Shown here piece by piece: positions 328 to 57,145 of a stretch of 64,000 bases of DNA. The stretch is from a virus (Duplodnaviria > Caudoviricetes). The translations under genes and the position numbers were made by a program. Each line of letters opens with the position of its first letter. Position 1 is the stretch's first letter. The stretch lies in IMG/VR virus record IMGVR_UViG_2645727839_000001, positions 32,001-96,000 of that record; one strand, given 5' to 3'. The notes below the pieces were generated by a model that saw nothing but the letters and a program-made list of their open reading frames with translations, was not told where the DNA came from and ran no database searches.

Positions 328-654
328 TTAAAAAACAATCACTAATACAACAACAATTGCTAATACAGCGGCAGCACCCAACAAGAACCCCCATTGGAGG
401 AAAAAGTGACTGTCGATTAGCTTGTCTAGCTGAGATTGAATTTGAGAAGCCTCTTTGATGGCCTCAAGCTTTTCTCGGTACAACTCGCAGTTTAACTGAC
501 GAGCTTTTTCTTTCTGCTCTTCGGGTAAACCGGCTGGATTTGAAATGTAGTTGTACGTGTACTTCTCAATTGCCATATGTGCAGATTCCTCCGCTTCAAT
601 GCGACTTTTATTCAAGGTACGGTACAACCAAAGGACTTGAATGAAGTTCCTCAT
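328..654 (-). CDS. hypothetical protein with C-terminal membrane anchor
   Basis: ORF with ACACAAAGAGA leader and upstream TATAAG box. Confidence 0.7.
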   Translation of the reverse strand: MRNFIQVLWLYRTLNKSRIEAEESAHMAIEKYTYNYISNPAGLPEEQKEKARQLNCELYREKLEAIKEASQIQSQLDKLIDSHFFLQWGFLLGAAAVLAIVVVLVIVF

Positions 655-845
655 AGTTGTTCTCTTTGTGTAGTGTTAGTGAGCTTATATTGTGCAGTGT
701 TTGACTAGGCATTACTAGTATAAGAAGTGGGGTTTTAGGGGGTATTCCGTAGGTATAAGGAAAGCGATTTTTTTATAGGCTGGGACTGGAACCTTCCGGG
801 TCGAAGCATCAAGCCCGTATATGGGGAAATGACAAAAGCTAAATG

Positions 846-867
846 AGGGGAGCTATCAACTCCCCTT
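846..867. terminator. intrinsic terminator hairpin
   Basis: AGGGGAG-ctatcaa-CTCCCCT downstream of the minus-strand gene ending at 880. Confidence 0.55.
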
Positions 868-879
868 GTTACTTAGTTG

Positions 880-1548
880 TTAAGCGCGTTCAATATCGGT
901 TTCGTCTAGCTCAATTTCTGCACTCTCTGGAAGCTTGCTGATTAGAGCGGTTTTAGCTAGTAGGTCTTTAGTTACTACGTGATCAAGGTCTAGAGTGTAG
1001 AATGATTCTCTAGAGATCTTCTCTTCACTCATTGCACCTAAGCAGTTCATTGCATGGAAGCAATTACGTGTCCACGTTCTCGCGCTCTCTGGTGTGTAGT
1101 TCGTTTTTGTTGTCTGACTAATACACTTGCGCACAATAGCGGTTTGAATATCGCGAGCTGACACCGTAGCGCGTTTGGTGAAGCATTCGAAGAACACAAA
1201 GAAGCATTCACGCTGGACAGCTTTATCACCTACGATGTTTTGAACAAAGGCTAATAGCGTATCGAATGCGTAGATTGAGCTAGTAGATAGAACCGCGCTC
1301 TCATGGTCTTTGCAGTGTTTGAAGACGTACTTTTGAGCCTCTTTGCTGCACTTCTCAAACTTAGTTAAACGCTTCTTACGAGCTGCCGCGTTGTGTACGT
1401 TATCACGTAGCTTCTTAAGAGCTTCTTTGTGTTGTTCTGTTTCTTGCGCTTGTTCGTTGTGTGCAATGATATCGTTAAGCTTAGCGTTGCGCTCTTCAAC
1501 TGCTGTAGATACTGATTTAAGCGATAGTTTGATAGTTGCGTTAGTCAT
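880..1548 (-). CDS. hypothetical coiled-coil protein with C-terminal winged-helix-like region
   Basis: Start moved to MTNATIK (1548), preceded by AAGAGAG; C-terminal YTPESARTW motif shared with ORFs at 13147 and 34774. Confidence 0.65.
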   Translation of the reverse strand: MTNATIKLSLKSVSTAVEERNAKLNDIIAHNEQAQETEQHKEALKKLRDNVHNAAARKKRLTKFEKCSKEAQKYVFKHCKDHESAVLSTSSIYAFDTLLAFVQNIVGDKAVQRECFFVFFECFTKRATVSARDIQTAIVRKCISQTTKTNYTPESARTWTRNCFHAMNCLGAMSEEKISRESFYTLDLDHVVTKDLLAKTALISKLPESAEIELDETDIERA

Positions 1549-2080
1549 AATAGTTACTCTCTTAATAAGTGTATGTAATGCGCTTAATGCGCTTGTTTGT
1601 CGTTGTCGTGTTGACGAGATGAATAATAGCAAATCCTGCGACTTCGTAAAGTAAAAAATCATAAAAAACTTAACTTTTATTAAAGTATTTACGAGGTGCT
1701 TTGGAAGTGACTGTTTCCGCAAGGAAAGAAAGTGGAGCGAGGGAGAAAAAAGACCTAGATAAAAAGGACTAAACCTTTGACCTGACGTTACCTTAGATTT
1801 CCACGATTGGTATCAAACGGTCTAAAAGCTAAAGCCATCTAAAGAGATTCCCATGGTACTCATGCCCTCCACCACGGCATTCAGACGTTCCCAAGCTCAT
1901 TTCAGTGGTAATTGCCCCTATACGGTTTTGCTCCCGTACCCAAAATCGGGAAAGAATTGGGTTTTGAAGTCCCACGGTAGAACAACCAAGGCATGACCGG
2001 AGCTGGTGGAGGAAGTTCCAAGGTTAAGAGAGTCCCTTGGTTGCGGCACTGAAAGTCCCATGGTGTTTAGTTCAGATACA

Positions 2081-2109
2081 AAAAAGCCTCTCTAGTGTTG
2101 AGAGGCTTT
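2081..2109 (-). terminator. intrinsic terminator
   Basis: AAAGCCTCTC-tagtgtt-GAGAGGCTTT with A-run; same loop sequence as the hairpin at 48174-48202. Confidence 0.7.
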
Positions 2110-2160
2110 ATGTTTAGAAGAAGTAAGCTAGTACAAGACCAGCGACGACAGCGAGTGCCA

Positions 2161-2472
2161 TTACAACGAACTCGCTATTTTTTCTAATAGCGTTAGCCAT
2201 TTTGCTTCTTTTCCCCATACGTTAAACACCTTTGCTACTGCGTAGACCCAGAATGTGGTCTTGAGCGCAATTGCGATACTCTCAAGCTTAAGCTTGGTAG
2301 TTTCCCATTTGAGCTTCTTTGCGTTAGCGGCTCTTTCTTTGTGCACCAATGACACTGTATACCTCTTAATGTATATCAGAGTTCTTATACTAGCAACGCG
2401 AGTCAGGGCAATCGGGTCGGTAGTCAGCACCTCATCAATAGTGCCTTGATGTAGTTCCCATGGTATTTGCAT
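2161..2472 (-). CDS. hypothetical protein
   Basis: ORF track only. Confidence 0.45.
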   Translation of the reverse strand: MQIPWELHQGTIDEVLTTDPIALTRVASIRTLIYIKRYTVSLVHKERAANAKKLKWETTKLKLESIAIALKTTFWVYAVAKVFNVWGKEAKWLTLLEKIASSL

Positions 2473-2530
2473 CAGATATTAAAAGGCTACCGCTTGGGTA
2501 GCCTGATAGCCAGAGACCGTTAGACCGTGA

Positions 2531-2851
2531 CTAGTGAACCTCTTTACGTTTGGAGTACTTACGCTTTTTAGGTTTGGTGATTTCAATCATCTTCTTGAGG
2601 GTTTCTTCAACTGGTTCGTCGAACTCGGTTCTGAGGACATATAGCCAGTCTCTAGTTAGTTTGGCTTTAGCTTCTTTGGCGTCTTGTCTTTCTTTGGCGG
2701 AGGGGATGAATTCTTGGAGTACGTCTGCCAGTTCTAGCAAGGCGTTGTCGGGTAGTTGTTTTAGCATGGCTCGGGTTCTTCGCTGCCCCTGCCCTAATAC
2801 CTCAGCTATATGGTCAGAAGGTGATTTCTGCTTGAAGGTGTAGTGATCCAT
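2531..2851 (-). CDS. putative H-NS N-terminal-domain-like protein (no C-terminal DNA-binding domain)
   Basis: Start MDHYTF with ACACAAAGAGA leader; EVL..QRRTRAMLKQLPDNALLELADVLQEFI..KERQ resembles the H-NS oligomerisation helices. Confidence 0.45.
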   Translation of the reverse strand: MDHYTFKQKSPSDHIAEVLGQGQRRTRAMLKQLPDNALLELADVLQEFIPSAKERQDAKEAKAKLTRDWLYVLRTEFDEPVEETLKKMIEITKPKKRKYSKRKEVH

Positions 2852-2893
2852 AGTGTTTCTCTTTGTGTGGTGTAAACCTATCCGTGTGTGCTT

Positions 2894-2960
2894 TAAAAAA
2901 ATAGGGGCCGCTAAGCCCCGCACACACAAAGAGATCGGAGCGTGTCGCTCGTCTCAATTC
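2894..2960 (-). ncRNA. candidate small RNA 1 (~67 nt) with seed UCUCUUUGUGUGUG antisense to the shared gene leader
   Basis: TATAAG -10 box at 2966-2971; 5' hairpin GAGCG-ACA-CGCUC; seed; terminator GGGGC-UUAGCG-GCCCC followed by UA and a U7 tail. Confidence 0.65.
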
Positions 2961-2994
2961 ATGTTCTTATATTAACAGCGTTACTCAGGTAATT

Positions 2995-3012
2995 AAAGTC
3001 ACCACTGACTAA
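2995..3012. promoter_or_regulatory. 18-bp palindromic operator copy
   Basis: AAAGTCACCACTGACTAA, just upstream of the candidate sRNA-1 promoter. Confidence 0.6.
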
Positions 3013-4040
3013 GTGCCTTGGTGATGCCGGATAAGGCGGAGAAAGCCCCATGGTGTTTGTACGAAACAGGCACTCTACCTATACGGATTTCGCCCCTTTC
3101 TCCGGTTTTCAGGATAAACCACTTTCTCCATCGAGGTGGCGCGATATTTTCTACCTTGGCCAGAAGAGGTAAACCTATTAACCGTGGTTGATTATTCTGG
3201 TGTGCCGCTGACCGATACTGGTCTTCCTATAAGAATTTTCTACGATTTGTTGACACTGGAGCTTAAAAGACCACGATAACTAACACTTTTCCCCCAAATT
3301 CTCCCTATTCTCCCCTTATCTATTACTACATACCTTACTACTACTCTTACCTACTCTATCTCTATAGTTACTACCTAATATCTACTTACTATATCTATAC
3401 CGGAGAGTATTGTTCTTCTTTCTATCCGCAGGTTAAGAGCGAGGTAAAGTGACAATTCATTTTAAGGTTTTTCTCTACTGGTAAACTTTACTTTCAATAT
3501 AGACCTTTATTGTACTTTGCTTATACAAGCCGGAGTTATTGAATTTCTCTGTAAGCCTTGTTGTGTATGGGTTTGTTTGAGTTTTTAGGACAGTTAAACA
3601 ATTTACTTTTTTCTTCTACGGTTTGAGTACATTTGCCTTACTCTTGTTTAGTAGGTTTGAAGAGTATTAGCCATGTTTAGCCAGACCATAAAAGACCGTT
3701 TATCTTGTTTTCTTTTTCTCTCACTGGTGTGATTTTGATTTGAGTTGTTTAGGGTTGGATTGGGGTTAGTTCCGGTTGATTAGCTTTGTTATTAGTTACC
3801 GTGTCACATAGCAGTCACGCCACCAGCTTCTCTTTCTCTCTACTGTTTGAGTACAAATACTGAATCAAGGGAGTAATGTTTCTGTCGCTCTGTTGTCTTC
3901 TGAGAGTCTTGGGGTTGTCTTTTTGATGTCTACAGTCAGCTTTTGATTGAAAAGCTCTTAGAATTGATTTGAGAGAGTGATTTAGATATGAAAAAGGGCT
4001 AACTTTCGTTAACCCTTGTTATTGGTTTTATCTACTGTAA

Positions 4041-4559
4041 TTAGAACGTGTAACCCAAGTAAGCTGCGAAACCAACGCCCTCTGCTATCTCTGTTGAGAA
4101 GCGAGCCGTTAAACCAAATGAGCTTGTGTATTGAATACCGGTACCCAAACTTAGCTGAGAGCTAGTTCCTTCTGAATTGCATGGAATCAACCAACCACAT
4201 GTGTAGCCATCGAACAGAGTTACCGAGTCTTTCTTACTGCCAATCCCTACCCTACCGAACAGGTCCCATTGTTTGTTTAACGGGAACATACCTGTTGGTG
4301 CAATGTAAGTGTGGCTCTGTTCATACTTAAAAGCCCAAGTTTCAGTCTTTAGCTTTTTGTAGCCTACCTCTAGTGCAAAGTAGGGATTGAAGCGGTAGCC
4401 CATGAAAACATCTGTACCAACTGAATCGAGTTCAGGTGATGAAGTGCTTAGTTCTATCATACCGCCGCCCATAACATAAATGTCACCTGCTCTTACTGGT
4501 GATGGTGCTGCGATTGCTGATGTGGCAATAAGTGTTAGAGCCAATATTGTCTTTTTCAT
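4041..4559 (-). CDS. OmpA-like 8-stranded outer-membrane beta-barrel protein
   Basis: Signal peptide, GYRFNPYFALEVGY motif, C-terminal GYTF. Confidence 0.85.
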   Translation of the reverse strand: MKKTILALTLIATSAIAAPSPVRAGDIYVMGGGMIELSTSSPELDSVGTDVFMGYRFNPYFALEVGYKKLKTETWAFKYEQSHTYIAPTGMFPLNKQWDLFGRVGIGSKKDSVTLFDGYTCGWLIPCNSEGTSSQLSLGTGIQYTSSFGLTARFSTEIAEGVGFAAYLGYTF

Positions 4560-4664
4560 GGTGTTCTCTTTGTGTTTGTCTTGTTGACGAGATAGATAAT
4601 AAGGAACGGGAAAAGGCTATTCACTCGAGGTTGAGTGAATAGCCTGAACGTTAGTGGTTATCGA

Positions 4665-7600
4665 TTAAGATTGTGATGGGTATGCTTCTTTAAAAAGCTC
4701 ATGCATGTTGGAGAATAGTTTCGCATCTCCGAACTTACCTTTCTGAAAACCCTTAGTCTTAGCATCGAAGCCAATTGAATACTTGGTATTCAAGATTGCT
4801 TGATTAGGCTCTTTAGATATCTCAAGCAAGTTCATAGGCGTCCACGCATGAGGGACTTTGGTGTACTCATCTACAAAGTTATTCGATACCATCATGATAT
4901 GGCCACCGACTCGAGCTGCACGTCGAGTTTCGGCAAACAGTGTGCTCGTGTCGTTGTTCCAGAACACAGTGGTATCGATGTTTTCGAATGTAGAGGTTTG
5001 GCTTCCGTCCTCAACAAAAGCGATAAACTTAGGAGATAACATTTCACCATTGTTTATGCTTTCACTCGAGATCTTGAATGAAGCCCAACCGTAGTTGTAC
5101 CCCGATGGGTTATGAGAGTTACCCATGTAAAACCCAATATCGATTTCTAGAGCGTTAACGCCATCATCATACTGACAGCTAACGTCTATGATATTTGAGC
5201 CATACTTGTCTTCGCATACTTTGTGAATAGAACGATCAGGTAAACCTAAACCTGCTTCTGCTTCTAGCCATAAATTAGGCGCCTCAATACCCACTTCATT
5301 ATCCTCTCGATCTACTGGCTTCTCACCCGGTACAACACCAGAATCAGGATCTAAAGGTTTATCAACCTCTTCACCCGGTGTTCCCGGTTTCGGCACAGTT
5401 ACTTCATCTTCTTTGTTATCTACTTCTTCACCCGGTACCCAACCATTACCATTATCAGGCTCGATAGGATTAATTCCAGACTCTACATCTCCGGTATTAT
5501 CTTCTGGCTTAGTACCGGGCTTCCAGCCATCTCCGTTATCTGGATCGATAGGCTTAATTCCAGACTCTACATCACCAGTGTTATCTTCTGGCTTAGTACC
5601 GGGCTTCCAGCCATTACCACTATCAGGATCGATAGGCTTAATTCCAGACTCTACATCACCAGTGTTATCTTCTGGCTTAGTACCGGGCTTCCAGCCATCT
5701 CCGTTATCTGGATTGATAATTTCATCGCTAGGCTTACTAGGTGGATTAATCGGCGTCTCTCCGTCAGGAGTACTTGGTCGACCCGGAACGGCATGATCTG
5801 GATTGTTAGGGTCAGTCATGTCTTCACCCGGTATACCCGGAGCAACCTCGACGCTGTTATCTTCCTTATCTGAACCATCTACCCAACCGTCACCGTTATC
5901 AGGTTCTATTGGTTTGATTCCCGGCTCATAAGGAATATCAGGTTCACCTTGACCCGGTTTACTTGGTCGCCATCCGTTGCCATTATCTGGGTCAGTCATG
6001 TCAGTCCCATCTTCCGGCTTGGGTGTAAACTCAAAATCAGGGTCAATAGGTTCTACTAGACCAAAATCTTTATCACCGATAAAAATTGAGTCATCTTCTT
6101 TATCAGTACCCGGAACCCAACCGTCACCATTAGTGCTATCGTCTGGTGTTAAACCCGGAGCCCAGGGGATATCTGGATCACCACCATTCGGTTTGCCAGG
6201 CACCCAACCATTGCCATTGTCAGGTTCTATTGGCTTAGTACCCGGAGCCCAGGGAAGATCAGGTTCGCCTCCATTTGGCTTGCCGGGAATCCAACCATTA
6301 CCGTTATCTGGATTAGTCATATCTTCACCCGGAGCTACATCACCAGTATTATCTTCTGGTTTAGTTCCCGGTTTCCAACCATTACCGTTATCTGGATTAG
6401 TCATATCTTCACCCGGAGCTACATCACCAGTATTATCTTCTGGTTTAGTTCCCGGTTTCCATCCATTGCCGTTGTCTGGGTCAATTGGTTTAATACCAGA
6501 CTCTACATCTCCGGTGTTGTCTTCTGGTTTAGTACCGGGTTTCCACCCATTACCATTGTCAGGATTGATTGGCTTAGTACCGGGTTTAACATCACCAGTA
6601 TTGTCTTCTGGTTTAGTACCCGGCATCCACCCATTACCATTGTCAGGATTGATTACATCGGTTCCATCTTCTGGCTTAGGTGTAAACTCGAAGTCACTAT
6701 CTAAGTCAATATCACCCACGTAAACCCAATTTAAGTAGTCGTTCTCAACCGTAACAATGTAACCACCGTTGTAGTAAGACTTCGTACCGTCTTCGTTCTC
6801 GATCACTTTGAAAGTAAAGTGATGGTTGTTAACCGTGTGAACGTTAACTTCACCTCTTAAGCCGTTACCGAACGTAGCAATAGAAGTTTTCTTATAGAAG
6901 ACTCTACCTGCCTCTACACGAAGGTCTGGTTTAAAATCAGTACCAATGTCTAAGAACGGTGGGATTGGATTAACAGTTGGTGGAGTGATGTTAAAATCAC
7001 CGTCTAGCTCAGCATCACCTACATAAACCCAATTCAGTAGCCCGTCATCTTCTACTGAAATCATAAACCCACCGTTGTAGTAAGCTGTTTCGCCATTGCC
7101 TAATTCGACAATTCGGAATACAAGCTTTTCACCACCACGAAGACGTAAAGTTACCTCGTTTTTATGAGACAAACCTACATGAGCAATAGAAGTCTTCTTG
7201 TAGTAAAGCTGCCCCTGCTCTAGATAAATCTCTGGATTGAAATCTACACCGATGTCTAAGAACGGTGGAAGAGGGTTTTCTATTGGTGGCATGATCTCGT
7301 AGTCGCTATCACCATTCCAGTTACCTTCTTCACCTACTTCCCAATCTGGGTTTGTATCAGGTGGTGTAATTGGCTTTGTTCCGTTGTCAGGACGCTCAAT
7401 GCCTACTTCAACATCATTATCAGGTGTCGTAGTAGGTGCATCAGGAACCCATCCATTACCATTGTCAGGTTCAGTTGGTTTAGTACCCGGTTCTACTAAG
7501 CTAGGCATATCCAAATCAAGATCGCCTACATAGTTCCAATCAACCTTACCGTTCTCATCAACAGTAACTTTGTAGCCGCCATTGTAGTAAGACTTAGAGC

Positions 7601-8285
7601 CATCAGAGTTTGTGACCTCTTTGAACTCATACATTTTGCCGTCTTTAGCGCGAAGTCGAATGGTTCCCGGCTCGCCCTTTCCAACGTGGCCAATAGACTC
7701 ACCTTTGACGTAAAGCTGTCCATCATCTTTGTTGAAATTAGCTTCTGGTTTGAAATCGACACCAAGATCAGGTTGTGAAGGAGTAGTACCTACCTCTTCA
7801 TCGGGTGTAGTTGGCTTCTCACCCGGCACCCAACCATCAGTGTTGTCTTCTGGTTTGGTACCATCTTCTGGTTTAGGGGTGAATTCAAAATCAGGGTCAG
7901 TAGGTACTTCTAATCCAAAGTCCTTATCTCCAATGAAGTCAGGTTCACCCGGCCATATTGGAAGCTCGACGCTAGGGTAATCTGGAACTTCGACATCAGG
8001 AGAGCCGCCGCCCGGTAGTGGTGCAGACTCTTCATCACCCGGAGTTGTTGGGGTTCCCGGAGTCCAACCGCTATCTGGAGTAGTTGGTTTAGATCCCGGT
8101 GCGATATCACCATTATTGTTTTCTTTGTCTGAGCCATCTACCCAACCGTCACCATTATCTGGGTTGATAGGATCAATGGGTTCAACTACAGCTGGTGGCT
8201 TTTCTGGTGCCAAAGTGTCTCGACTATCATCGTTACAACCGACGAGCGAGAGCCCTATGGCAATGCACAGTATTGATTTGTTCAT
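4665..8285 (-). CDS. giant Pro/Asp/Gly-rich repeat lipoprotein
   Basis: Lipobox LVGC after MNKSIL; 28-aa repeats PDNGNGWKPGTKPEDNTGDV; three ~90-aa YYNGG/WxYVGD domains. Confidence 0.8.
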   Translation of the reverse strand: MNKSILCIAIGLSLVGCNDDSRDTLAPEKPPAVVEPIDPINPDNGDGWVDGSDKENNNGDIAPGSKPTTPDSGWTPGTPTTPGDEESAPLPGGGSPDVEVPDYPSVELPIWPGEPDFIGDKDFGLEVPTDPDFEFTPKPEDGTKPEDNTDGWVPGEKPTTPDEEVGTTPSQPDLGVDFKPEANFNKDDGQLYVKGESIGHVGKGEPGTIRLRAKDGKMYEFKEVTNSDGSKSYYNGGYKVTVDENGKVDWNYVGDLDLDMPSLVEPGTKPTEPDNGNGWVPDAPTTTPDNDVEVGIERPDNGTKPITPPDTNPDWEVGEEGNWNGDSDYEIMPPIENPLPPFLDIGVDFNPEIYLEQGQLYYKKTSIAHVGLSHKNEVTLRLRGGEKLVFRIVELGNGETAYYNGGFMISVEDDGLLNWVYVGDAELDGDFNITPPTVNPIPPFLDIGTDFKPDLRVEAGRVFYKKTSIATFGNGLRGEVNVHTVNNHHFTFKVIENEDGTKSYYNGGYIVTVENDYLNWVYVGDIDLDSDFEFTPKPEDGTDVINPDNGNGWMPGTKPEDNTGDVKPGTKPINPDNGNGWKPGTKPEDNTGDVESGIKPIDPDNGNGWKPGTKPEDNTGDVAPGEDMTNPDNGNGWKPGTKPEDNTGDVAPGEDMTNPDNGNGWIPGKPNGGEPDLPWAPGTKPIEPDNGNGWVPGKPNGGDPDIPWAPGLTPDDSTNGDGWVPGTDKEDDSIFIGDKDFGLVEPIDPDFEFTPKPEDGTDMTDPDNGNGWRPSKPGQGEPDIPYEPGIKPIEPDNGDGWVDGSDKEDNSVEVAPGIPGEDMTDPNNPDHAVPGRPSTPDGETPINPPSKPSDEIINPDNGDGWKPGTKPEDNTGDVESGIKPIDPDSGNGWKPGTKPEDNTGDVESGIKPIDPDNGDGWKPGTKPEDNTGDVESGINPIEPDNGNGWVPGEEVDNKEDEVTVPKPGTPGEEVDKPLDPDSGVVPGEKPVDREDNEVGIEAPNLWLEAEAGLGLPDRSIHKVCEDKYGSNIIDVSCQYDDGVNALEIDIGFYMGNSHNPSGYNYGWASFKISSESINNGEMLSPKFIAFVEDGSQTSTFENIDTTVFWNNDTSTLFAETRRAARVGGHIMMVSNNFVDEYTKVPHAWTPMNLLEISKEPNQAILNTKYSIGFDAKTKGFQKGKFGDAKLFSNMHELFKEAYPSQS
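5435..5720. repeat. 84-bp tandem repeats within lipoprotein gene (array 1)
   Basis: TAATTCCAGACTCTACATC recurs at 5471, 5555 and 5639. Confidence 0.85.
6290..6650. repeat. 84-bp tandem repeats within lipoprotein gene (array 2)
   Basis: CCGTTATCTGGATTAGTCATATC at 6301 and 6385, with degenerate copies following. Confidence 0.8.
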
Positions 8286-13093: not shown

Positions 13094-13114
13094 AGTGCCT
13101 CTCTTTGTGTTTTA

Positions 13115-49047: not shown

Positions 49048-49194
49048 TTCAATAATTCTCTAAAAAACCGCAGCTCTCTTTCGCTGCGTAGTCATCATCG
49101 TGATTTTGAATGCTCTCTGACATCAATCTAAAGATTGAATGTTGTTACTATAAGAAAAAATATACATGAGTCATGCAGGTGTTAACAGACATAA

Positions 49195-49227
49195 AAAAAG
49201 GGCTTCCGAAGAAGCCCTTTATTTTTT
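49195..49227. terminator. intrinsic terminator; near-identical copy at 49840-49868
   Basis: AAAGGGCTTC-CGAA-GAAGCCCTTT. Confidence 0.75.
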
Positions 49228-49777
49228 AAAGAGATTTGATAGGTTTAGCAGGGACACCCGCTACCACCGTATTGGGCGGTACATCCTTATTTACAACGGC
49301 ACCAGCTGCAACAATTGAATTCTCACCAATAGTTACTCCGCCTAAGATTGTTGCGTTCGCGCCAATCCACACACGGTCACCAATTACAATAGGTAATGAT
49401 TGCTCATAGCCTTCTGAACGCTGAATGGCATCAAGAGGGTGACCAGTTGTGGTAATCACAACGTTAGGCGCAAGCAGTACTGACTCACCGATTGTAACGA
49501 AGTTACCATCAAGAATGGTGCAGCCATGATTTGCATAGAAGTGATCACCTACAATGATATTGCAACCGTAATCGCAATTAAATGGTGATTCTAGGTGTGC
49601 TGTTTTGTTACCAATAAGTTCTGCGGTGATACGCTCACGAACTTGGGAGTCAAAAGCTTGATTTAGTTGGTAACATTTGAATTTTGTAGTGGCTCGCTCT
49701 TCTTCAAGGCTTGTTTCAAAAGCCATGTACATTTCGCCAGTTAACATTTTTTCTCTTTCAGTGTTGATATTCATCAT
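49226..49777 (-). CDS. maa: sugar (maltose/galactoside) O-acetyltransferase
   Basis: [20 protein letters not shown], hexapeptide repeats, VAGVPAK. Confidence 0.88.
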
Positions 49778-49898
49778 AGTGTTTCTCTTTGTGTAGTGAG
49801 TTCTCAGTATATGAGAATAATCAAGGTTACTAAAGATAAAAAAAAAGGACTTCCGAAGAAGTCCTTTTATGACATGAAAGATGTTATGCGTAACTCTA

Positions 49899-50282
49899 TC
49901 AACCTTTCAGTACTGAGTTCAAAAGGTTCGTATAGGCTGACTTGACACCTGTATCCTCGACCTCAGTTTCACTCTGGTCGATCTCAACTTTTCTGTCTAA
50001 GCCGCGAACTAGGCAACTAATGTAACCAATGCTCACACCTGTTATTTTGGAGATATCTCGTAAGCTGTATTTCTTATCAGCCATTGCTCTTATTTTGGCA
50101 ATGACCTCATCAGAGTACTGCTTACTTCTTCCTCCAACCTTCTGTTTAAACTCCATACCGTTTCTATATAGGTATTGATAGATAGTTCTTCGACTTTTCC
50201 CTGTTAACTCCGCCAGCTCATCCAAATCCATAAATTGCGAGTTGGTTTCAACTATCTGTCTTTGTTTATCAGTCCAAGCCAT
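49899..50282 (-). CDS. double-HTH DNA-binding protein
   Basis: WTDKQ...[13 protein letters not shown]; [18 protein letters not shown]. Confidence 0.7.
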
Positions 50283-50293
50283 GATACACCTTG

Positions 50294-51748
50294 CTATTTG
50301 TTAAACTGCACCTTCATTGCAGCGGCAACTTTATCTACTTTGCCTATACCTACAATGACCTGCACAGCGGTTTCGCTTAGTTTAACAACAGCCGTTGCAC
50401 CAAGAGCTTTAACTGCGTCCTCATCAATAGCTTTTGATGATTTAACTGTTAAGCGAAGACGAGTAATGCAGTTATCGATTTCAACCAAATTATCATTGCC
50501 ACCTAGAGCTTTAATGTAATTATCGGCTAAATCTTCAATACTGCCACCGTCTTCTTTATTCAAGTCTTCACCTCGACCTAGAGTCTTAAGGTTGAATTTC
50601 TTGATAGCAAAGCGGAATAGCACATAGTAAAGAACGAAGAATACTAAACCTTGAGCAATCAGCATGTACCACTGAGTTGCTAGAGGGTTTTGTGTACCTA
50701 GTACGAAGTCAACGAAACCTGCTGAGAAACCGAAACCTGACATCCAACCCATGTGAGCTGAGATAAATAGGCTTAAACCAGTTAGTACAGCGTGGATGAA
50801 GAACAGTACTGGCGCTAAGAACATGAACGAGAACTCAAGAGGTTCTGTGATGCCCGTAAAGAACGATGCAGCAGCAGCCGCAATCATTACAGAGAACACC
50901 TTCGTTTTGTTCTTCTTGTCTGCGCTATGGTAGATAGCTAGTGCAGCAGCAGGTAGACCGAACATCATGATCGGGAAGAAACCTGCTTGGTACATACCAG
51001 TTACACCCGGTGTCGCTGTGCCGTTAGCAATAGACTGAGCACCACCTAAGAAGTTAGGGATGTCATTAATGCCTACTACGTCAAACCAGAAAACAGGGTA
51101 AAGAGCGTGGTGCATACCGATAGATAGCATTAGACGGTTAAAGAAACCGAATAGACCAGCACCTACAGCACCCATATCTTGCAGAGCTGTACCTAATGTT
51201 AGAAGACCGCTGAATACAACTGGCCATACTGCCATTAGAACGAACGCTAGAATCATACCTGCAATAGAGGTCAGGATAGGAACGAGACGTTTGCCTGAGA
51301 AGAATGCTAGTGCTTTAGGTAGCTCGATGTGAGAAGTACGGTTGTAAATCTCAGCAGAGATAATACCGACTACGATACCAACGAACTGGTTAGCAACCTT
51401 GTCAAACGCCATGTTTACGTTTTCGACAGGAATGCCTTGTAGTTGTGCGATTACACCTTTAGATAGAAGAGTTGTAACCACCAGCCACATAACAAAACCT
51501 GAAAGTGCAGCAGAACCGTCTTTGTCTTTTGACAGACCGAATGCAACACCAACAGCGAATAGAACTGCCATGTTATCAATGATAGCCCCGCCTGATTTAA
51601 TAAGGAACGCAGCCAAAACACTGTTCGAACCCCAACCAGTTGGGTCTAACCAATAACCGACACCCATAAGAATAGCCGCAGCAGGAAGAGTAGCTACAGG
51701 CACCATAAGAGCCTTACCTACTTTCTGCATATACCCTAGTATATCCAT
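50294..51748 (-). CDS. nagE: PTS N-acetylglucosamine-specific EIICB transporter
   Basis: QKVGKALMVPVATLPAAAIL, GITEPLEFSFMF, EIIB DNCITRLRL. Confidence 0.92.
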   Translation of the reverse strand: MDILGYMQKVGKALMVPVATLPAAAILMGVGYWLDPTGWGSNSVLAAFLIKSGGAIIDNMAVLFAVGVAFGLSKDKDGSAALSGFVMWLVVTTLLSKGVIAQLQGIPVENVNMAFDKVANQFVGIVVGIISAEIYNRTSHIELPKALAFFSGKRLVPILTSIAGMILAFVLMAVWPVVFSGLLTLGTALQDMGAVGAGLFGFFNRLMLSIGMHHALYPVFWFDVVGINDIPNFLGGAQSIANGTATPGVTGMYQAGFFPIMMFGLPAAALAIYHSADKKNKTKVFSVMIAAAAASFFTGITEPLEFSFMFLAPVLFFIHAVLTGLSLFISAHMGWMSGFGFSAGFVDFVLGTQNPLATQWYMLIAQGLVFFVLYYVLFRFAIKKFNLKTLGRGEDLNKEDGGSIEDLADNYIKALGGNDNLVEIDNCITRLRLTVKSSKAIDEDAVKALGATAVVKLSETAVQVIVGIGKVDKVAAAMKVQFNK

Positions 51749-52005
51749 CTTTTACTCCAAATTTTTAAAGAACAATTTTTTAAGCTTGGGAAGAGAGAAG
51801 GGGGAACAACTCTCTTCCCCGAAAGGACGCTACCCCTTTCTGTATTAAGCAGTGACTAGCTACTTAATAGATTGCTAATTTAACTTTCAGATCTAGGGCA
51901 AACAATGCTACTCAAAGCTAACGCCTTAAGAGTCATAAGCACAGATTAAATAAAGTGTCTACTTAAGCTATATTTATAAAAACTTGCTTGCCGCTTACTA
52001 AAAAC

Positions 52006-52029
52006 TTAATTTGCGTTGCGTAGTATAAG
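52006..52029. promoter_or_regulatory. possible NagC operator upstream of nagE
   Basis: CTTAATTTGCGTTGCGTAGTATAA loosely resembles NagC boxes. Confidence 0.3.
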
Positions 52030-52087
52030 AGTCAGAACCAGTGAACTCAACGAACCTAGATCACAATTCCTGACTCTTACTAGGGTT

Positions 52088-53167
52088 TTATATCATTAAA
52101 TTTAGTCTTATCTTAGCCATCGTGAGCGAGTTCACTGGTTCTGACCTATAAAACGCCAGTCTTACTTCATCTTTCGAAATTTCATTCGGGTCTTTTCCGT
52201 CTGGTAATCTAGCTAAACGGACATCAAAACCAAAACTTCTCAAATGCAATGCTTGTTTACATGCAGCCTTGATAGCTGACGGTTCTCCATCCCACATAAA
52301 GGTGACAGTTCGCAAGCCTTTCTGTTTTAGGTCGAACAACTGAGTGAGCTGACATCCTTTCTCGCCATCTGTAGACAGAGACTTACCAAATGACCCCACC
52401 ACACCTACGCTATTCAATGTCGAATCATCTTCGAACGCCATAATTACAGCCGCCACGTCGAATGCGCCCTCTGCAATTACAATACTCTCCAAGCCTATTA
52501 CGTTATGAGCGTTGTACAGGTACTTACCAGTACCAGCTAAGCCAGGGGGGAATAGATATTTCTTATCTGACCTATTTGTGATGTCGCGACCTTGAAACGT
52601 GACAAGATCACCTGTCATGTCAAAAATAGGAATAATGATCCGATTGTCATACACCTGATACCGGTCTTTCTCAAACAAGGTGTAATCGAATCGACCTGAT
52701 TTACAGAATCGTAAGCCCAAATACTCTGTCACCTCGAGAGATATGTTTCGGTCAGAGAGATATTTGAGGTTCTTGCCTTTGATTGGAAGAGGAAAGGATT
52801 TTGGAAGCTTAACGCTTGTTTGGAGGTTTGTTGCTCGAGCTTTTTTCTTTACTGGAATCCAGCCAGTTAACTCGATGTACTTCTCTAGCTCTTGATAGGC
52901 GGCCTTGCCATTACCGAGTAGATGTTTGGCAAAGGTGAATAGGTTAAAGCCCGGTTCACCAACACATGAGCCGTGAAAGCAATTGCCAAGCCCAGTATCT
53001 ATGCCTAAATAGACTTTCCAAGAGTTACCCCCACAACGGGGGCACTCCTTAATGTTAGCCTGAACGCCAGAGCTGCCTTGTGCGATTCTCATATCTACGC
53101 CTAAGTGCGATAGAAAATCCTCTACATCGACCTGCTCTAGCATTTCTTTTAATTCGCTATGAGCCAT
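52088..53167 (-). CDS. DNA primase (zinc finger plus TOPRIM)
   Basis: CPRC...CFHGSC, FQGRDI, IAEGAFD, WDGE, KDPNE. Confidence 0.88.
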   Translation of the reverse strand: MAHSELKEMLEQVDVEDFLSHLGVDMRIAQGSSGVQANIKECPRCGGNSWKVYLGIDTGLGNCFHGSCVGEPGFNLFTFAKHLLGNGKAAYQELEKYIELTGWIPVKKKARATNLQTSVKLPKSFPLPIKGKNLKYLSDRNISLEVTEYLGLRFCKSGRFDYTLFEKDRYQVYDNRIIIPIFDMTGDLVTFQGRDITNRSDKKYLFPPGLAGTGKYLYNAHNVIGLESIVIAEGAFDVAAVIMAFEDDSTLNSVGVVGSFGKSLSTDGEKGCQLTQLFDLKQKGLRTVTFMWDGEPSAIKAACKQALHLRSFGFDVRLARLPDGKDPNEISKDEVRLAFYRSEPVNSLTMAKIRLNLMI

Positions 53168-53330
53168 TATCTTTCCATACTCTATGAAGCCAGATAAAAG
53201 TCAGTGCGCAGATAATCGAACCAATAGCGACAGCACTTCTCTTAGTGTCGCCTAGTGCGCCCAGACCAAATGTAACCAATTGAGCGATTAGTGAGATCGC
53301 TATAATTCGTACCGTCTTCTGGATATTCAT
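53157..53330 (-). CDS. small two-TM membrane protein
   Basis: Start MNIQK with shared leader; operator at 53347-53364. Confidence 0.6.
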   Translation of the reverse strand: MNIQKTVRIIAISLIAQLVTFGLGALGDTKRSAVAIGSIICALTFIWLHRVWKDNGS

Positions 53331-53375
53331 GTGATTCTCTTTGTGTGTAGTCACTGGTGACTTATGTGTTTACTA

Positions 53376-54869
53376 CTAGCAAATATCTATAACCCCGTCG
53401 ATGAAGCTCATCTTGTCGAGGGTTTGTTTAATCCGAACTGAGAATTCACCTGATTGGTTACGACTGGCTGCAAAGTACAGTCGAGCCTCACCTTTGTCTC
53501 GTTCTTCGTCAGTACGGTTAATTGAAAGCACAAGGTCGGCAATTCGAATCTTGTTAAAGTCTTCTGCCACGTCTTCTGCTTTAGCGGTTGTGTTCTTGAA
53601 GCCAGAACGGTTCGTCTGAGTAGCGGTAAGCATTGCGCAGTTTTCCACCTGAGCAATCGCACGCAAACCCAACCAAATCTGTTTGCTGTTTTCAATCTCA
53701 CTTTGGGTCATGTAATCAGGGGCCATGATGTCGGCATAGTCTACGATGATTACATCGAACTTAATACCTTCTCCGCGATACCTTTCAATTACACGCTTAA
53801 GCTCCTTACAAGTAAGCGTACCCGATGGGAATTCACAAATCTTGAACTCACCAGCCATAGTACGTTTGGCGCGAATCTCGTCTCGAATAGAAACTAGGTT
53901 CTCGTCTAAGTCGCCCATCGATGTTTTTGTTACGTTGGCATCAAGACGATCCGAGATGATCGCGTGTGATACCTCGAGCGTTGCGTAAAGAACGTTGTAA
54001 CCCTGCAAGCTGAAAGCCATACCGAAGTGGCCCAGACCCATAGACTTACCTTTCTTAGCACCACCCATGATGACACTAAGCTCTTTACGGCCTACGCCTT
54101 TGTGATAAAGCAGATCATCAATCTTCTTGTTGCCTGTCGGGATACCGGTTGGCTTAATTAGACCGCTTACCTTATCTTTTCGTCGTTCGGTACGCTCATC
54201 GATGTCAGCCCAGTAATCCAATTCTTCATACGAGCGAGTGACACCCATATTGAATGCTTTGGTAAAGTTCGATTCGATAGCATCAAAGTCGCCACGTTCA
54301 GCGTTGTCTATTGCTGAGTGGATAGCTTTCATGATCTCCTGTTTTTTACAGAAGTCAGCTACACGGTCGAGCACGAAGTCTGAGTTAGACAGGCTCTCTC
54401 GCTTGATTGAACGCCACTTGTCGATGACACCACGTTTAGCTTCTTCTCTAATGATTCGATGGTTAATCGCATCTTTTAGAATTTCTGTCCAAACTGAGCC
54501 ATCACCGCTAGGTAACTGCGCGTACTTATCAAAGTGTTTTTGAGCTAAACCAACTAGCATTGCTTCATTGTAGTTCTCGAAATGATGAGGTTTGATCATG
54601 CCGTCTACTCGACGCATGAAATTCTCATCACGAATCATCAATGCCGCAATCTTAGTTTGGAAGTCCTCTGCGAAATCGAAGGGGAGCTCCTTTGGTTTCT
54701 CTTCAGGTTTGATAACCGGAGCAGGGTGTTTCTCTTCCTTGCCTACTCCACCCATCATCATTGCCCCAACGTCTTCCGCCACTGATTTCTCAGTGGCAAC
54801 TTTTGGTTTGGGTTTTGATGTGGCAATTTTTGCCCGAACTGCTGCTATAGCATCTGGTTCTCTATCCAT
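53376..54869 (-). CDS. DnaB/gp41-like replicative helicase
   Basis: GGAKKGKS, ATLE, IIVDYAD, TATQTNR, IADLVL. Confidence 0.9.
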   Translation of the reverse strand: MDREPDAIAAVRAKIATSKPKPKVATEKSVAEDVGAMMMGGVGKEEKHPAPVIKPEEKPKELPFDFAEDFQTKIAALMIRDENFMRRVDGMIKPHHFENYNEAMLVGLAQKHFDKYAQLPSGDGSVWTEILKDAINHRIIREEAKRGVIDKWRSIKRESLSNSDFVLDRVADFCKKQEIMKAIHSAIDNAERGDFDAIESNFTKAFNMGVTRSYEELDYWADIDERTERRKDKVSGLIKPTGIPTGNKKIDDLLYHKGVGRKELSVIMGGAKKGKSMGLGHFGMAFSLQGYNVLYATLEVSHAIISDRLDANVTKTSMGDLDENLVSIRDEIRAKRTMAGEFKICEFPSGTLTCKELKRVIERYRGEGIKFDVIIVDYADIMAPDYMTQSEIENSKQIWLGLRAIAQVENCAMLTATQTNRSGFKNTTAKAEDVAEDFNKIRIADLVLSINRTDEERDKGEARLYFAASRNQSGEFSVRIKQTLDKMSFIDGVIDIC

Positions 54870-54881
54870 GATTGCTCCTTA

Positions 54882-55172
54882 CTATTGAGCAACTTCGTTA
54901 TAACCAAGCAGCGAGCTTTTGAAGACCGTAAATGGGGTAGGTTTTCCGATCTCTACGGTGATGGTGAAAGCATCGTAACTTTTAAGCTTACCCTTAATCA
55001 CAAGGCCAGAGTTGGCATGAAGTTCAATGTCTGCTTCGCGACGAAGTAGATCTAGCAGGTGAGCATCGTGACCACGAATGCCTTGCTTCTTACGTTCCTG
55101 ACTTCCGTAGTTCTTATGAGCACCTTTGCCCTTGTGGTTCTGAGGAAGGCGACGGTTATTTTTGTTATCCAT
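54882..55172 (-). CDS. hfq: Hfq-like Sm-fold RNA chaperone
   Basis: HDAHLLDLLRREADIELHANSGLVIKGKLKSYDAFTI...TVFKSSL parallels Hfq [37 protein letters not shown]...MVYKHAI. Confidence 0.75.
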   Translation of the reverse strand: MDNKNNRRLPQNHKGKGAHKNYGSQERKKQGIRGHDAHLLDLLRREADIELHANSGLVIKGKLKSYDAFTITVEIGKPTPFTVFKSSLLGYNEVAQ

Positions 55173-55230
55173 TTTCTTATCTCTTTATGCGTGAAACATT
55201 AATAATAAACTTAAGTAAGTGGTGACTGAA

Positions 55231-55929
55231 CTATTCAGCTAAAATTTTCGCTCGAGCGACGGCTTTTTCACCGAACTGTTGAATCGCTTCTGTATGCTTC
55301 AACATTGGGTTTTCGTAAACGTATGCAGCTAACGAGAACTCTGGTCGAGAACTACGCTGTATCTGTCGCATGAGCGATATACGGTGTGCTCTCTGATAAG
55401 GGTGCTCAACGTTATTCTCGATCTGGTAAAAATCATCAGTGCTGACAAGTAGGTTCACCTGTCGCCACTCGTTCCACCTGGTCAAGATGAACTCCACCAT
55501 AGAAATGGCAGACCACGTTTCTGATTCTGCTTTTACCGATTCCGAATACAAGTGACACGGCTTAGGTGGATATGGCCAACAACAAAGATCGGCATATTCC
55601 ATAGCTCTGTGGCACCAGAACTCGTATGGCACACCATGTTTGTCGGCTATCTTTCTAGCTTTCCATAACCCGGTGATTGTTGTCTTTGACTCAAGCAGCA
55701 AGTCACCTTTCTTTAGAACCCTAGCGTTCATACCTATGTAAATGTCGATCTGCTTTTTTAAAGCTGACTTCATTGCTTTTACATACGCATCAGCAAAAAC
55801 TCTGGTTGCTTCAAGTGGGTGCATTAGCCTGTAGTCCCACCACTTTGACTTGTACAGGTCAGCTTCGCCATCTAAGAGGGCAGGGCTGACAGTAATGATT
55901 GTTAGGTGATCTAGTTCCGCACTGTTCAT
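55231..55929 (-). CDS. hypothetical protein heading the hfq-helicase-primase operon
   Basis: 232-aa ORF; operators at 55212 and 55934. Confidence 0.7.
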   Translation of the reverse strand: MNSAELDHLTIITVSPALLDGEADLYKSKWWDYRLMHPLEATRVFADAYVKAMKSALKKQIDIYIGMNARVLKKGDLLLESKTTITGLWKARKIADKHGVPYEFWCHRAMEYADLCCWPYPPKPCHLYSESVKAESETWSAISMVEFILTRWNEWRQVNLLVSTDDFYQIENNVEHPYQRAHRISLMRQIQRSSRPEFSLAAYVYENPMLKHTEAIQQFGEKAVARAKILAE

Positions 55930-56020
55930 TAGTTAAGTCAGTAGTGAGTGATGTTGATATCTTATAGATAGTAGAGTGGTAATGAAAGAGAAGCTGATCT
56001 TAATACCGCGTTATATTTCT

Positions 56021-56119
56021 TGGACTAGGAGAGGGTAAAAATACGTTCTGTATAATATATATCTATCTTTGATAGATATATTAATATAAGGGACTGCGGA
56101 AAAACCCTCTCCTAATCCA
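56021..56119. repeat. ~99-bp palindromic element B (inverted homologue of 11176-11272)
   Basis: TGGACTAGGAGAGGGT...ATATATCTATC-TTT-GATAGATATAT...ACCCTCTCCTAATCCA. Confidence 0.85.
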
Positions 56120-56176
56120 TACTTTAATTTTCTCCGTGAAAAAATATTTGCATTGCCTCATTCTCATCGTTTAGAG

Positions 56177-56194
56177 TAAGTCACTGCTGACTGA
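56177..56194. promoter_or_regulatory. 18-bp operator copy abutting a TTGCCT...TAGAGT putative promoter
   Basis: TAAGTCACTGCTGACTGA. Confidence 0.7.
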
Positions 56195-56240
56195 TTCATA
56201 TAGTGAGCTTGCACTGTATACACACACACAAAGAGAAACG

Positions 56241-56585
56241 ATGGTGAGAACTCGAAGCATACCTCAAGAAGAATTGATAAAGCTTTACGAGTATGAACGT
56301 TCATTATCAAGAAGGCTGCTCGGCTTGGGCGAGAAAATTAAGGTCGCCAGAGAAGCTAATCGATACTCGCAAGAAACAATCGCGGAATGCTTGAACGTAT
56401 CACGCTCCACAGTTAGCGCAATCGAAAGAGGTAAGAGCACTCCTTCTTTGGCGTTATTGTTAAAGATATCGTACATAACCAATCGTCCACTTGATTGGTT
56501 CTTCGATAGAAACATAGATCCCTTAGCGGGGATCAAGTCAATCAAGCTAAACCTGAACAACGGACTCTACGAAATAGAGTACTAG
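56241..56585 (+). CDS. XRE-family HTH regulator
   Basis: LGEKIKVARE...SQETIAE.LNVSRSTVSAIERGKSTPSL. Confidence 0.88.
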   Translation: MVRTRSIPQEELIKLYEYERSLSRRLLGLGEKIKVAREANRYSQETIAECLNVSRSTVSAIERGKSTPSLALLLKISYITNRPLDWFFDRNIDPLAGIKSIKLNLNNGLYEIEY

Positions 56586-56611
56586 CGTCTTACTACACAA
56601 AGAGAAACACT

Positions 56612-57145
56612 ATGGCACTACCACACATTTTACTTTCTGAACTAGAGAAGAAGAGTCAGACAGGCTACGACATAAGCTGTATTTTGATTCGCACACCTCA
56701 CGGGCGTTATTGGCGAGCTAGCCACCAGCAAATTTATCGAGATCTAAACAAGATGCTCGAAAATAAACTGGTAACAGTAAGGCTAGTACCGCAAGTAGGT
56801 AAACCTGACCGTAAGATTTATTCAATTACCAAGCTAGGGAGGGTTGAACTAAGTGAATGGCTAAGTTCACCACCTGAATTGCCTACGTTCCGAGATGAAA
56901 TGGCCTCTCGAATTATGGCTGCGAAAGGTGAGGACATACCGGGTTTGATTGAATCACTTCTCGAAATGGAAAACGAGTGCGAAAAGTACCTAGATGTAGT
57001 CACAGAAAATCGTAAAATGATCGACGAAGCCGACATTTCCAAGTTTGAAAAGACAAAATTCAAAATCATGTTTAACCGAGCAGAAGAGCACTGGTTAAGT
57101 TTTTATAACTGGTCAGTAGAAACTCGCCAATTACTGGTGTTGTAG
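56612..57145 (+). CDS. aphA: AphA-like PadR-family regulator
   Basis: MALPHILL...TGYDI...YWRASHQQIYRDLNKM...PQVGKPDRKIYSIT..G...L.EW...PTFRDE closely follows Vibrio AphA. Confidence 0.8.
   Translation: MALPHILLSELEKKSQTGYDISCILIRTPHGRYWRASHQQIYRDLNKMLENKLVTVRLVPQVGKPDRKIYSITKLGRVELSEWLSSPPELPTFRDEMASRIMAAKGEDIPGLIESLLEMENECEKYLDVVTENRKMIDEADISKFEKTKFKIMFNRAEEHWLSFYNWSVETRQLLVL

Follow-up and report, generated by a model that had tools for sequence, protein, structure and literature searches.

Nearly identical nucleotides precede the start codons of many genes in a virus contig of 115,468 bp, IMG/VR record IMGVR_UViG_2645727839_000001. We analyzed its bases 32001-96000, a stretch of 64,000 nt that we call the window and whose numbering is used below unless stated otherwise. 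The shared sequence, ACACAAAGAGA, is very probably a genuine, lineage-specific standard leader that works at the level of translation initiation, and it would serve about 20 promoter-proximal genes in the non-structural half of the element. Two exact copies lie in reverse orientation, each just ahead of a terminator-like hairpin. At somewhat less than an even chance, we tentatively favor the view that these copies act as RNA anti-leaders in some form, in cis, in trans, or both.

The shared leader and the palindrome upstream of it

The pattern ACAAAGAG occurs 25 times in the window, compared with a mean of 4.08 and a maximum of 11 in 100 dinucleotide shuffles (0/100 reach 25). The 11-mer ACACAAAGAGA likewise gives 25 matches when up to one mismatch is allowed, against a shuffle mean of 2.16. 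An initial annotation of this DNA had listed 15 genes with the motif shortly upstream and four more with variants. All of these sites are present: the exact 8-mer stands 5-13 nt before the ATG at 15/15 of the listed starts, and each of the four variants is where it was reported (Table 1). The whole record holds 28 copies, 17 of which lie 5-13 nt before the ATG of some gene; two of the three copies outside the window are leaders as well. In many leaders the conserved block exceeds the motif first described, and the extended consensus reads CACTAC-ACAAAGAGA-aaCACT-ATG.

Position relative to the gene distinguishes the leader from a promoter element. Across 22 aligned leader sites, 13 of which contain the exact 11-mer, the ATG is constantly 5-13 nt away, whereas -10-like boxes stand anywhere between about 8 and 40 nt off. 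The motif is therefore placed for translation rather than transcription initiation, and the same distances speak against its being part of a promoter or of a phage-RNA-polymerase promoter. In a heuristic gene map, the gap upstream of the gene is at least 50 nt for 14 of 16 motif genes (gene start 654 was left out) and falls below 15 nt for none of them (0/16), compared with 55 of 125 other genes that have gaps below 15 nt. The motif therefore marks the first genes of transcription units.

The genes themselves are functionally mixed and include regulators, enzymes, an OmpA-like barrel, and several products without a family match. The supposed ihfA, gene 13093, encodes an IHF-alpha-like product that falls just short of the profile cut-off (Table 1). 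The gene called aphA-like, 56612, belongs to the PadR family but gave no AphA-specific match. For gene 24540 the sbcD-like assignment stands; its product is a metallophosphoesterase encoded three genes upstream of an SbcC-like gene.

A purine-rich block 5-13 nt before the start is what a Shine-Dalgarno (SD) sequence requires, and the motif supplies one in the proper position. Its pairing to the anti-SD, computed with a generic 9-mer tail, is weak: -2.9 kcal/mol is the typical value, and leaders average -4.4 where other genes average -5.3. The AAGAG within the leader is at best a modest SD, and the leader would provide this weak signal within a C/A-rich context. Given the weak pairing, the identity around AAGAG needs another explanation.

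An 18-bp palindrome, TAAGTCACnnGTGACTTA, is also dispersed through the element. With up to four mismatches, it has 42 copies in the 115-kb record, against 5-13 in five mononucleotide shuffles. Almost all copies are intergenic, and 33 of the 42 stand 10-110 nt upstream of a start. The palindrome occurs in the structural and non-structural halves alike; it precedes the Hfq-like gene, the XRE gene, and nine leader-bearing genes, and it usually follows directly after a -10-like box. This placement would suit a repressor operator that overlaps the transcription start. The operator probably belongs to a global repressor, with the XRE or PadR protein as a candidate binder. Whatever becomes of the anti-leaders, regulatory sites in the element are arranged with unusual regularity, the palindromic operator coming first and the standard leader after it, which recommends the element as a model of gene control in phage-plasmids. 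Two relatives have dispersed 11-mers of their own (at most 10 copies in an Aeromonas plasmid and at most 8 in Salmonella phage SSU5), which may be counterparts of this palindromic operator.

Two more sites carry leader-like sequences. At 57300-57325, the ATC behind the leader-like GCACAAAGAGAAAATCACT may be a start codon that has decayed or one other than AUG; the open reading frame (ORF) at this site starts upstream, at an ATG at 57300, without an SD. On the minus strand at 39627-39655, the leader-like CCACAAAGAGC forms a hairpin with a neighboring partial complement, ATCTTTGTTT, in or beside a doubtful 103-codon GTG ORF within the divergent region 39397-39924. As a literature text term, ACACAAAGAGA returned hits that, among the matches listed, were all unrelated by title.

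Reverse copies of the leader and their possible pairing

Each reverse copy reproduces the 11-mer exactly, and the two lie on the plus strand amid minus-strand genes. The 12,663 nt of intergenic DNA should contain the 11-mer at most 0.008 times on each strand, and two exact reverse copies are therefore not a product of chance. Copy 1 is identical to other leaders over 14 nt and copy 2 over 19 nt; beyond these stretches the flanks differ. At both loci the anti-leader is on the transcribed strand, right before a minus-strand terminator-like hairpin (2919-2904 and 15354-15331).

Some other roles for these copies could be set aside. The copy at 15397 is not the leader of a plus-strand gene, as TAA occupies the position of the ATG, and the copy at 2924 has just a 16-codon GTG frame behind it. 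This hydrophobic frame (2942-2992, plus strand) begins 8 nt past the motif copy, has no evident plus-strand promoter, and is probably too short to mean anything. An invertible promoter switch between inverted copies appears unlikely with segments of about 55 and 125 bp.

The initial annotation had placed the reverse copies inside antisense promoter-to-terminator units. The exact complements and the terminators hold up, whereas the scan shows a promoter-like site at unit 2 alone and none on the minus strand of unit 1. At locus 1, the minus strand carries, in order, a small hairpin, UCUCUUUGUGUGUGC, the terminator GGGGCUUAGCGGCCCC, and UAUUUUUUU. If TGT-TAATAT at 2977-2969 is read as a TG-extended -10, it sets the 5' end of a 68-nt candidate RNA 1, whose terminator consists of GGGGCTTAGCGGCCCC and then TATTTTTTT. 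The previous gene on the same strand ends 1,121 nt from this terminator and has a terminator of its own. Anti-leader 1 would then belong to an orphan unit running from promoter to terminator, with a predicted folding energy of -21.3 kcal/mol (z-score -2.06).

Anti-leader 2 would instead lie in an unusually long, structured 3' untranslated region (3'UTR). The stop codon of gene 15450-15998 is separated from its terminator-like hairpin by 96 nt, while most gene-following terminators stand 2-56 nt past the stop. The resulting candidate RNA 2, 105 nt long, has a predicted fold of -45.1 kcal/mol (z-score -7.05). Searches of Rfam returned no match in the window at the gathering score and none in region 2850-4100 at E<=1; all matches in region 15250-15500 fell below threshold, the best with 27.9 bits where the gathering score is 55.

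In the explanation that we favor, an anti-leader RNA would mask the ribosome-binding site through base pairing. Masking in cis would take place on a read-through transcript of the gene immediately downstream. Masking in trans would involve short terminated RNAs acting on many leaders, and the two modes could coexist. Because each reverse copy precedes a leader-bearing gene on the same strand (anti-leader 1 by 55 nt from the leader of gene 2851, anti-leader 2 by 125 nt from that of gene 15252), a local cis role is as good a reading as one in trans. For a 195-nt read-through RNA at locus 2, the minimum-free-energy and centroid structures agree in placing anti-leader 2 and the leader of gene 15252 in one duplex. 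This predicted fold is reminiscent of icaR in Staphylococcus aureus, in which an anti-SD in the 3'UTR masks the ribosome-binding site by pairing. In contrast to icaR, the masked site here would be that of the next gene or of other mRNAs rather than of the same cistron.

The reverse copies match their own neighboring leader less well than they match others: 12 versus 14 nt for copy 1, and 11 versus 19 nt for copy 2. This favors either a consensus-directed role in trans or a relic over a purely local origin. Small RNAs (sRNAs) of the Hfq-dependent GcvB and DapZ type direct G/U-rich seeds against the C/A-rich ribosome-binding-site regions of many mRNAs, and DapZ lies in a 3'UTR with its own promoter. 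The element would offer a similar combination, with a G/U-rich, partly single-stranded stretch facing C/A-rich initiation regions and a candidate RNA 2 located, like DapZ, in a 3'UTR. The differences are that the targets here are near-identical over 11-24 nt instead of loosely similar, that both partners reside on one mobile element, and that the RNAs are predicted.

We computed how well the two seed stretches pair with the 141 initiation regions of the element. They are predicted to form duplexes of -15 kcal/mol or better with 31 and 23 of these, compared with means of 9.1 and 0.3 for shuffled seeds, although the count is circular because the motif defines both seed and target. The pairing proposed in the initial annotation is thus predicted between seeds and leaders, but by a circular test and with seeds that are partly paired. 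A regulon controlled in trans strikes us as rather unlikely. The strongest form of it, in which two anti-leader RNAs with the shared UCUCUUUGUGU seed shut the whole set of about 20 regulator, accessory, and DNA-metabolism genes on top of the palindrome regulon, perhaps with the DnaB-linked Hfq as chaperone, is doubtful.

The palindrome would explain most co-regulation of the leader units more simply and without an RNA regulator. Several observations weigh against an anti-leader function, and standardization of the leader could instead stem from cassette recombination or a protein operator. No minus-strand promoter was found in the scan of locus 1; the candidate RNA 2 region has three sigma-70-like sites where 2.9 are expected, and promoter-like sites in both regions are no commoner than in shuffles. 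Structure limits the seeds as well: 4 of the 11 anti-leader bases are paired at the base of the 5' hairpin of candidate RNA 1, with the others free, and the predicted fold of candidate RNA 2 leaves only about 7 nt of its anti-leader unpaired. The terminator of candidate RNA 2 has a 10-bp GC-rich stem but a poor U-tract, GTTGTGTCTG. In the read-through fold of locus 1, the anti-leader pairs with GCACACAC past the U-run, and the leader stays free. The better match to other leaders fits relic copies too. Substitutions in the leaders are wobble-compatible with the anti-leader in 8 of 11 cases, which does not discriminate because A or C occupies 9 of the 11 positions in the motif. Finally, no close relative of the element appeared in any collection searched.

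The most serious alternative takes the leader as merely an initiation or recombination cassette and the reverse copies as inverted relics or as incidental parts of terminator stems. A comparison can be made with the T4-type PeSL (promoter-stem-loop) cassettes, regulatory modules that recur at gene boundaries and favor shuffling. The leader resembles these, and the sites of the T4 RegA regulon, in being a shared sequence element at or near the initiation region of many genes; it departs from PeSL in that it consists of 11-24 nt of near-identity anchored to the ATG and is not a promoter. Leaders do sit on unrelated accessory genes (the OmpA-like barrel, an acetyltransferase, regulators), as the spread of a cassette predicts, and further stray copies occur in coding DNA at 22480, 41672, and 57302. 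At locus 1, the GUGUGUGC part pairs with GCACACAC past the U-run and so lengthens the terminator stem, and promoter evidence is weak for both units. Other features are harder to reconcile with relics. Neither reverse copy departs from the 11-mer, whereas only 13 of the 22 aligned leaders are exact, and the similarity of the reverse copies stops at 14 and 19 nt without reaching into flanking cassette sequence. Both also lie on the transcribed strand ahead of a terminator, and identity over 11-24 nt would exceed the needs of efficient initiation. Overall, we judge a relic origin less likely than not.

For the anti-leader explanation, we infer transcription of the two RNAs, their pairing in vivo, and their regulatory effect; an element-wide translational switch is possible on sequence grounds. 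Natural sRNA regulons have looser targets than this leader set. If the anti-leader RNAs are real, the element would present a compact and fully self-encoded case in which one seed controls a set of near-identical ribosome-binding sites.

An Hfq homologue beside the replicative helicase

The initial annotation also named an Hfq-like gene. Profile comparisons and the predicted fold indicate that its product is a true but divergent Hfq homologue, even though the protein alone scores below the PF17209 cut-off (18.3 bits, or 18.4 in a six-frame search, against 27). A word-based search for relatives found none, whereas an exhaustive HMMER search found six. The profile of the seven-member family matches 37 PDB sequences at E<=0.01, all of them Hfq or Hfq-like (best 1.8e-9), and 6 of the 7 members match PF17209, the best at 3e-10. 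An AlphaFold2 (AF2) model built with the alignment has a predicted local distance difference test (pLDDT) score of 75.9 and contains a helix at residues 35-44 and five strands, the Sm fold common to the Hfq family; the single-sequence AF2 model was poor (pLDDT 55.5). In a Foldseek comparison with the PDB, the 30 rows among the best 50 are all Hfq, with template-modeling (TM) scores, normalized to the target, of 0.73-0.91.

The protein departs from the family in several respects. Besides its sub-cut-off score, it bears a 30-residue basic N-terminal extension and is fixed beside DnaB. The proximal-pocket residues in the Sm2 motif of Hfq are [YF]-K-H. The element has FKSS in Sm2, compared with KHA in 2 of 7 relatives; K85 is invariant in the family. 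The nearest relatives of the protein come from Vibrio, and one of them is named 'RNA chaperone Hfq [unclassified Vibrio]'. The closest Hfq-like proteins, P0004 and P0005, are encoded in a Vibrio splendidus metagenome-assembled genome (contig of 110,544 nt) and on a contig of 119,050 nt, respectively. Because of these relatives, the host of the element is likely Vibrio-like.

A gene for this protein lies directly upstream of DnaB in all four carriers examined (4/4): the element, Pseudomonas phage nickie, an Aeromonas plasmid, and a Cupriavidus plasmid. In nickie, the unannotated (hypothetical) gp117 matches at an hhalign probability of 97.4% (E 1.1e-11) and overlaps the start of DnaB. The Aeromonas caviae plasmid has a gene annotated 'RNA chaperone Hfq' 8 nt from DnaB, and the Cupriavidus plasmid is arranged likewise. 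The family profile matched 2 of 4 records and found no copy in SSU5 or Rhizobium phage B1VFA.

The leader has a different distribution. A scan of nickie, the Aeromonas plasmid, and SSU5 found no standard leader. In the 30 nt before gene starts, the most frequent 8-mer is shared by 3 of 152 genes in nickie, 4 of 135 in the Aeromonas plasmid, and 5 of 131 in SSU5, compared with 16 of 142 in the element. The motif can thus be ruled out as a family-wide trait. Leader and hfq had been expected to be conserved together, but nickie and the Aeromonas plasmid keep the Hfq gene without a standard leader. It follows that the gene predates the leader motif and does not depend on it. Nor is this Hfq private to the element or to a regulon, since the same DnaB-linked gene occurs in nickie and in the Aeromonas and Cupriavidus plasmids, both of about 110 kb. 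As an old gene of the replication module, linked to DnaB, it is therefore not evidence for a regulon. Its conserved place next to the helicase points to a role linked to replication or to a general one, and the protein may still bind RNA. Whatever the outcome for the leaders, a divergent Hfq is a conserved neighbor of the replicative helicase in widespread phages and phage-plasmids of about 110 kb, and one may ask what function a protein with an Sm ring could have there, within a replication module.

These results bear on the full model of the initial annotation, in which two trans-acting sRNAs and a dedicated element Hfq switch about 20 leaders at once. Parts of it survive: the leader is anchored to the start codon, the anti-leaders are not due to chance, and the Hfq homologue exists. 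Candidate RNA 1 is laid out like an Hfq-dependent sRNA, with a 5' hairpin, a G/U-rich stretch, a GC hairpin, and UAUUUUUUU. The reverse copies fit the consensus (over 14 and 19 nt) and not the neighboring leader, many initiation regions are predicted targets, and the Hfq homologue has a weak variant of the motif as its own leader. Hfq binding follows an A-R-N triplet rule, and AAG-AGA-AAC in the leader can be read as three such triplets. The dedicated Hfq is the part that loses support, given its place upstream of DnaB here and in 3/3 other carriers examined, and given relatives without the standard leader (top 8-mer 3/152 in nickie and 4/135 in the Aeromonas plasmid versus 16/142). Moreover, a serine takes the Sm2 histidine position in the element's homologue, and the seeds are partly paired in the predicted folds. 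As a whole, the model is improbable.

The initial annotation further held that no such system had been described for a phage-plasmid. The class is not without precedent: the plasmid-like temperate Vibrio phage VP882 encodes VpdS, an sRNA that acts in trans, binds Hfq, and regulates phage and host mRNAs (PMC12197685). VpdS uses the host Hfq, and its description in that review mentions neither a standardized leader set nor an element-encoded Hfq (PMC12197685). The general class is known already, and a standardized target set would be the new part. The phrase 'phage-encoded Hfq' was not found in the papers listed, and a literature search on SSU5 or phage-plasmids together with Hfq gave nothing on this system, judged from its listings.

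Many early phage genes of the T4 RegA regulon share an element at or near the initiation region. The leader could similarly be the operator of a RegA-like protein that regulates translation, or an A-rich sequence bound by the Hfq-like ring, with the reverse copies irrelevant in either case. The near-invariant position of the motif over the ribosome-binding site suits this idea, and the weak anti-SD pairing (-2.9 against a mean of -5.3 kcal/mol) suggests a constraint other than the 16S tail. The element nevertheless yielded no CsrA or ProQ/FinO domain and no match to RegA (PF01818), a blank that is uninformative because the control was blank in all 14 genomes as well. Two exact reverse copies would also be left unexplained, and we give such an operator little weight. 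It is very improbable that the reverse copies are nut-like antitermination sites for passing the adjacent terminators: a hairpin does lie 1-3 nt behind each copy, between promoter or gene and terminator, and the CUCUUU core presumably resembles boxA, but the match extends over only some 6 nt, an N-like protein did not turn up, and the fact that the complement is a shared leader would go unexplained.

The element, its relatives and other features

Judged from its gene content, the element is a phage-plasmid of about 115 kb that belongs to the SSU5/nickie supergroup. The record has a GC content of 43.7% and a CheckV completeness of 100%; it is linear and lacks end repeats. Matches to PHROG families outside the window include a tape-measure protein, a portal, and a large terminase, and those within it include a DnaE-type DNA polymerase, an SbcC-like nuclease, a CobT-like protein, and a DnaB-like helicase. 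Structural genes, a DnaE-type replication module, and partition genes, the combination expected of SSU5-supergroup phage-plasmids, are thus all found. The initial label of phage-plasmid is borne out at the family level by the phage structural genes, the DnaE relatives, and ParA/ParB.

With the supergroup, the element has in common a DnaE-type polymerase, SbcCD, CobS/CobT-like ATPases, DnaB, siphovirus structural genes, and ParAB. Its DnaE is 46% identical to that of nickie, 42% to those of Aeromonas plasmids of about 110 kb (1,998 plasmid records matched), and 37% to that of SSU5. The element is set apart by this distance, with DnaE at most 46% identical to any record found, and by the standard leader and the TAAGTCAC palindrome, which are absent from nickie, the Aeromonas plasmid, and SSU5.

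Searches for closer relatives were made with several parts of the element. None was found by megablast of 44000-56000 against phages and plasmids, by the 20-nt leader pattern in viral contigs, or by the 1206-aa and 301-aa proteins against viral contigs. The Hfq-like protein (tblastn against phages and plasmids) and its relatives (P0005 and P0004 against viral contigs, P0005 against plasmids) likewise retrieved no close relative of the element. A DnaB search of viral contigs gave 3 loci with 49-57% identity and 51-53% GC, without the leader motif or the palindrome. DnaE against genome contigs gave 19 loci, all of them bacterial dnaE of the chromosomal type and none related to the element. The 20-nt leader pattern had 2 single-copy matches in metagenome contigs that were otherwise dissimilar to the element.

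Table 1. Positions of leaders, reverse copies, and other features (window coordinates, except for the final row)
Feature	Position	Strand	Sequence or basis	Remark
Leader, gene start 654	661-671	-	ACACAAAGAGA	
Leader, gene start 2851	2858-2868	-	ACACAAAGAGA	106 aa, no assigned family
Leader, gene start 4559	4565-4575	-		OmpA-like beta-barrel
Leader, gene start 9429	9435-9445	-		DUF4262
Leader, gene start 12157	12170-12180	-		
Leader, gene start 13093	13100-13110	-		IHF-alpha-like, 109 bits vs cut-off 111
Leader, gene start 14052	14060-14070	-	TCACAAAGAGA	
Leader, gene start 15252	15262-15272	-	GCACAAAGAGA	
Variant leader, gene start 16675	16682-16692	-	ACACGAAGAGA	
Leader, gene start 24540	24546-24556	-	TCACAAAGAGG	Metallophosphoesterase, SbcD-like
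Leader, gene start 30261	30268-30278	-		
Variant leader, gene start 36810	36818-36828	-	ACGCAAAGAGA	AAA_5/CbbQ-like
Variant leader, gene start 43655	43661-43671	-	ACACGAAGAGA	
Leader, gene start 47358	47367-47377	-	ACACAAAGAGG	
Leader, gene start 49777	49784-49794	-		Maltose O-acetyltransferase-like
Leader, gene start 53330	53336-53346	-		57 aa
Weak variant leader, gene start 55172	55180-55190	-	GCATAAAGAGA	Hfq-like gene
Leader, gene start 56241	56226-56236	+		XRE helix-turn-helix
Leader, gene start 56612	56595-56605	+		PadR family
Stray copy in SbcC-like gene	22480-22490	-	Exact 11-mer	Sense strand; in-frame ATG 14 nt downstream
Stray copy in ParB-like gene	41672-41682	+	Exact 11-mer	Codons 3-6, just past TAATG overlap with parA
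Leader-like stray copy	57302-57312	+	GCACAAAGAGA	Followed by ATC in place of the usual ATG
Anti-leader copy 1	2924-2934	-	Exact 11-mer	Minus-strand RNA reads UCUCUUUGUGU
Anti-leader copy 2	15397-15407	-	Exact 11-mer	19 nt complementary to leader of gene 30261
Candidate RNA 1 (68 nt)	2895-2962	-	5' end inferred	5' hairpin, anti-leader, terminator 2919-2904 and U-run
Candidate RNA 2 (105 nt)	15325-15429	-	Predicted fold	3'UTR of gene 15450-15998; three hairpins and terminator 15354-15331
Sigma-70-like site upstream of candidate RNA 2	15436-15464	-	Promoter scan	TTGAAT-17-TATACT
Palindrome, examples	13115-13132, 16693-16710, 20798-20815, 36833-36850, 47382-47399, 53347-53364, 55212-55229, 56177-56194, 61146-61163			
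Divergent Hfq homologue	54882-55172	-	Profile and predicted fold	96 aa, basic N-terminal extension
DnaB-like helicase	53376-54869	-	PHROG match	12 nt downstream of Hfq-like gene
ParA and ParB partition operon	40535-42825	+		
Hfq-like gene in relatives' loci	L029 42006-42275; L037 2675-2998; L050 2402-2788			

The window contains no tRNAs. Next to the gene for the OmpA-like barrel, the minus strand at 4665-8285 encodes the 1206-aa protein, which has no PHROG match. It contains repeated acidic peptides (EDMTNPDN, EDMTDPNN) and may have a surface or accessory function.

A 1.1-kb, ORF-poor segment at 2930-4040 is a candidate origin or control region. It contains a TTACTACTACTC short tandem repeat at 3323-3355 and 26-nt direct repeats at 3606 and 3830. 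The plus strand has a palindrome at 2995-3012 and, after it, a 55-codon ORF at 3024-3191; candidate RNA 1 would be read divergently from the segment.

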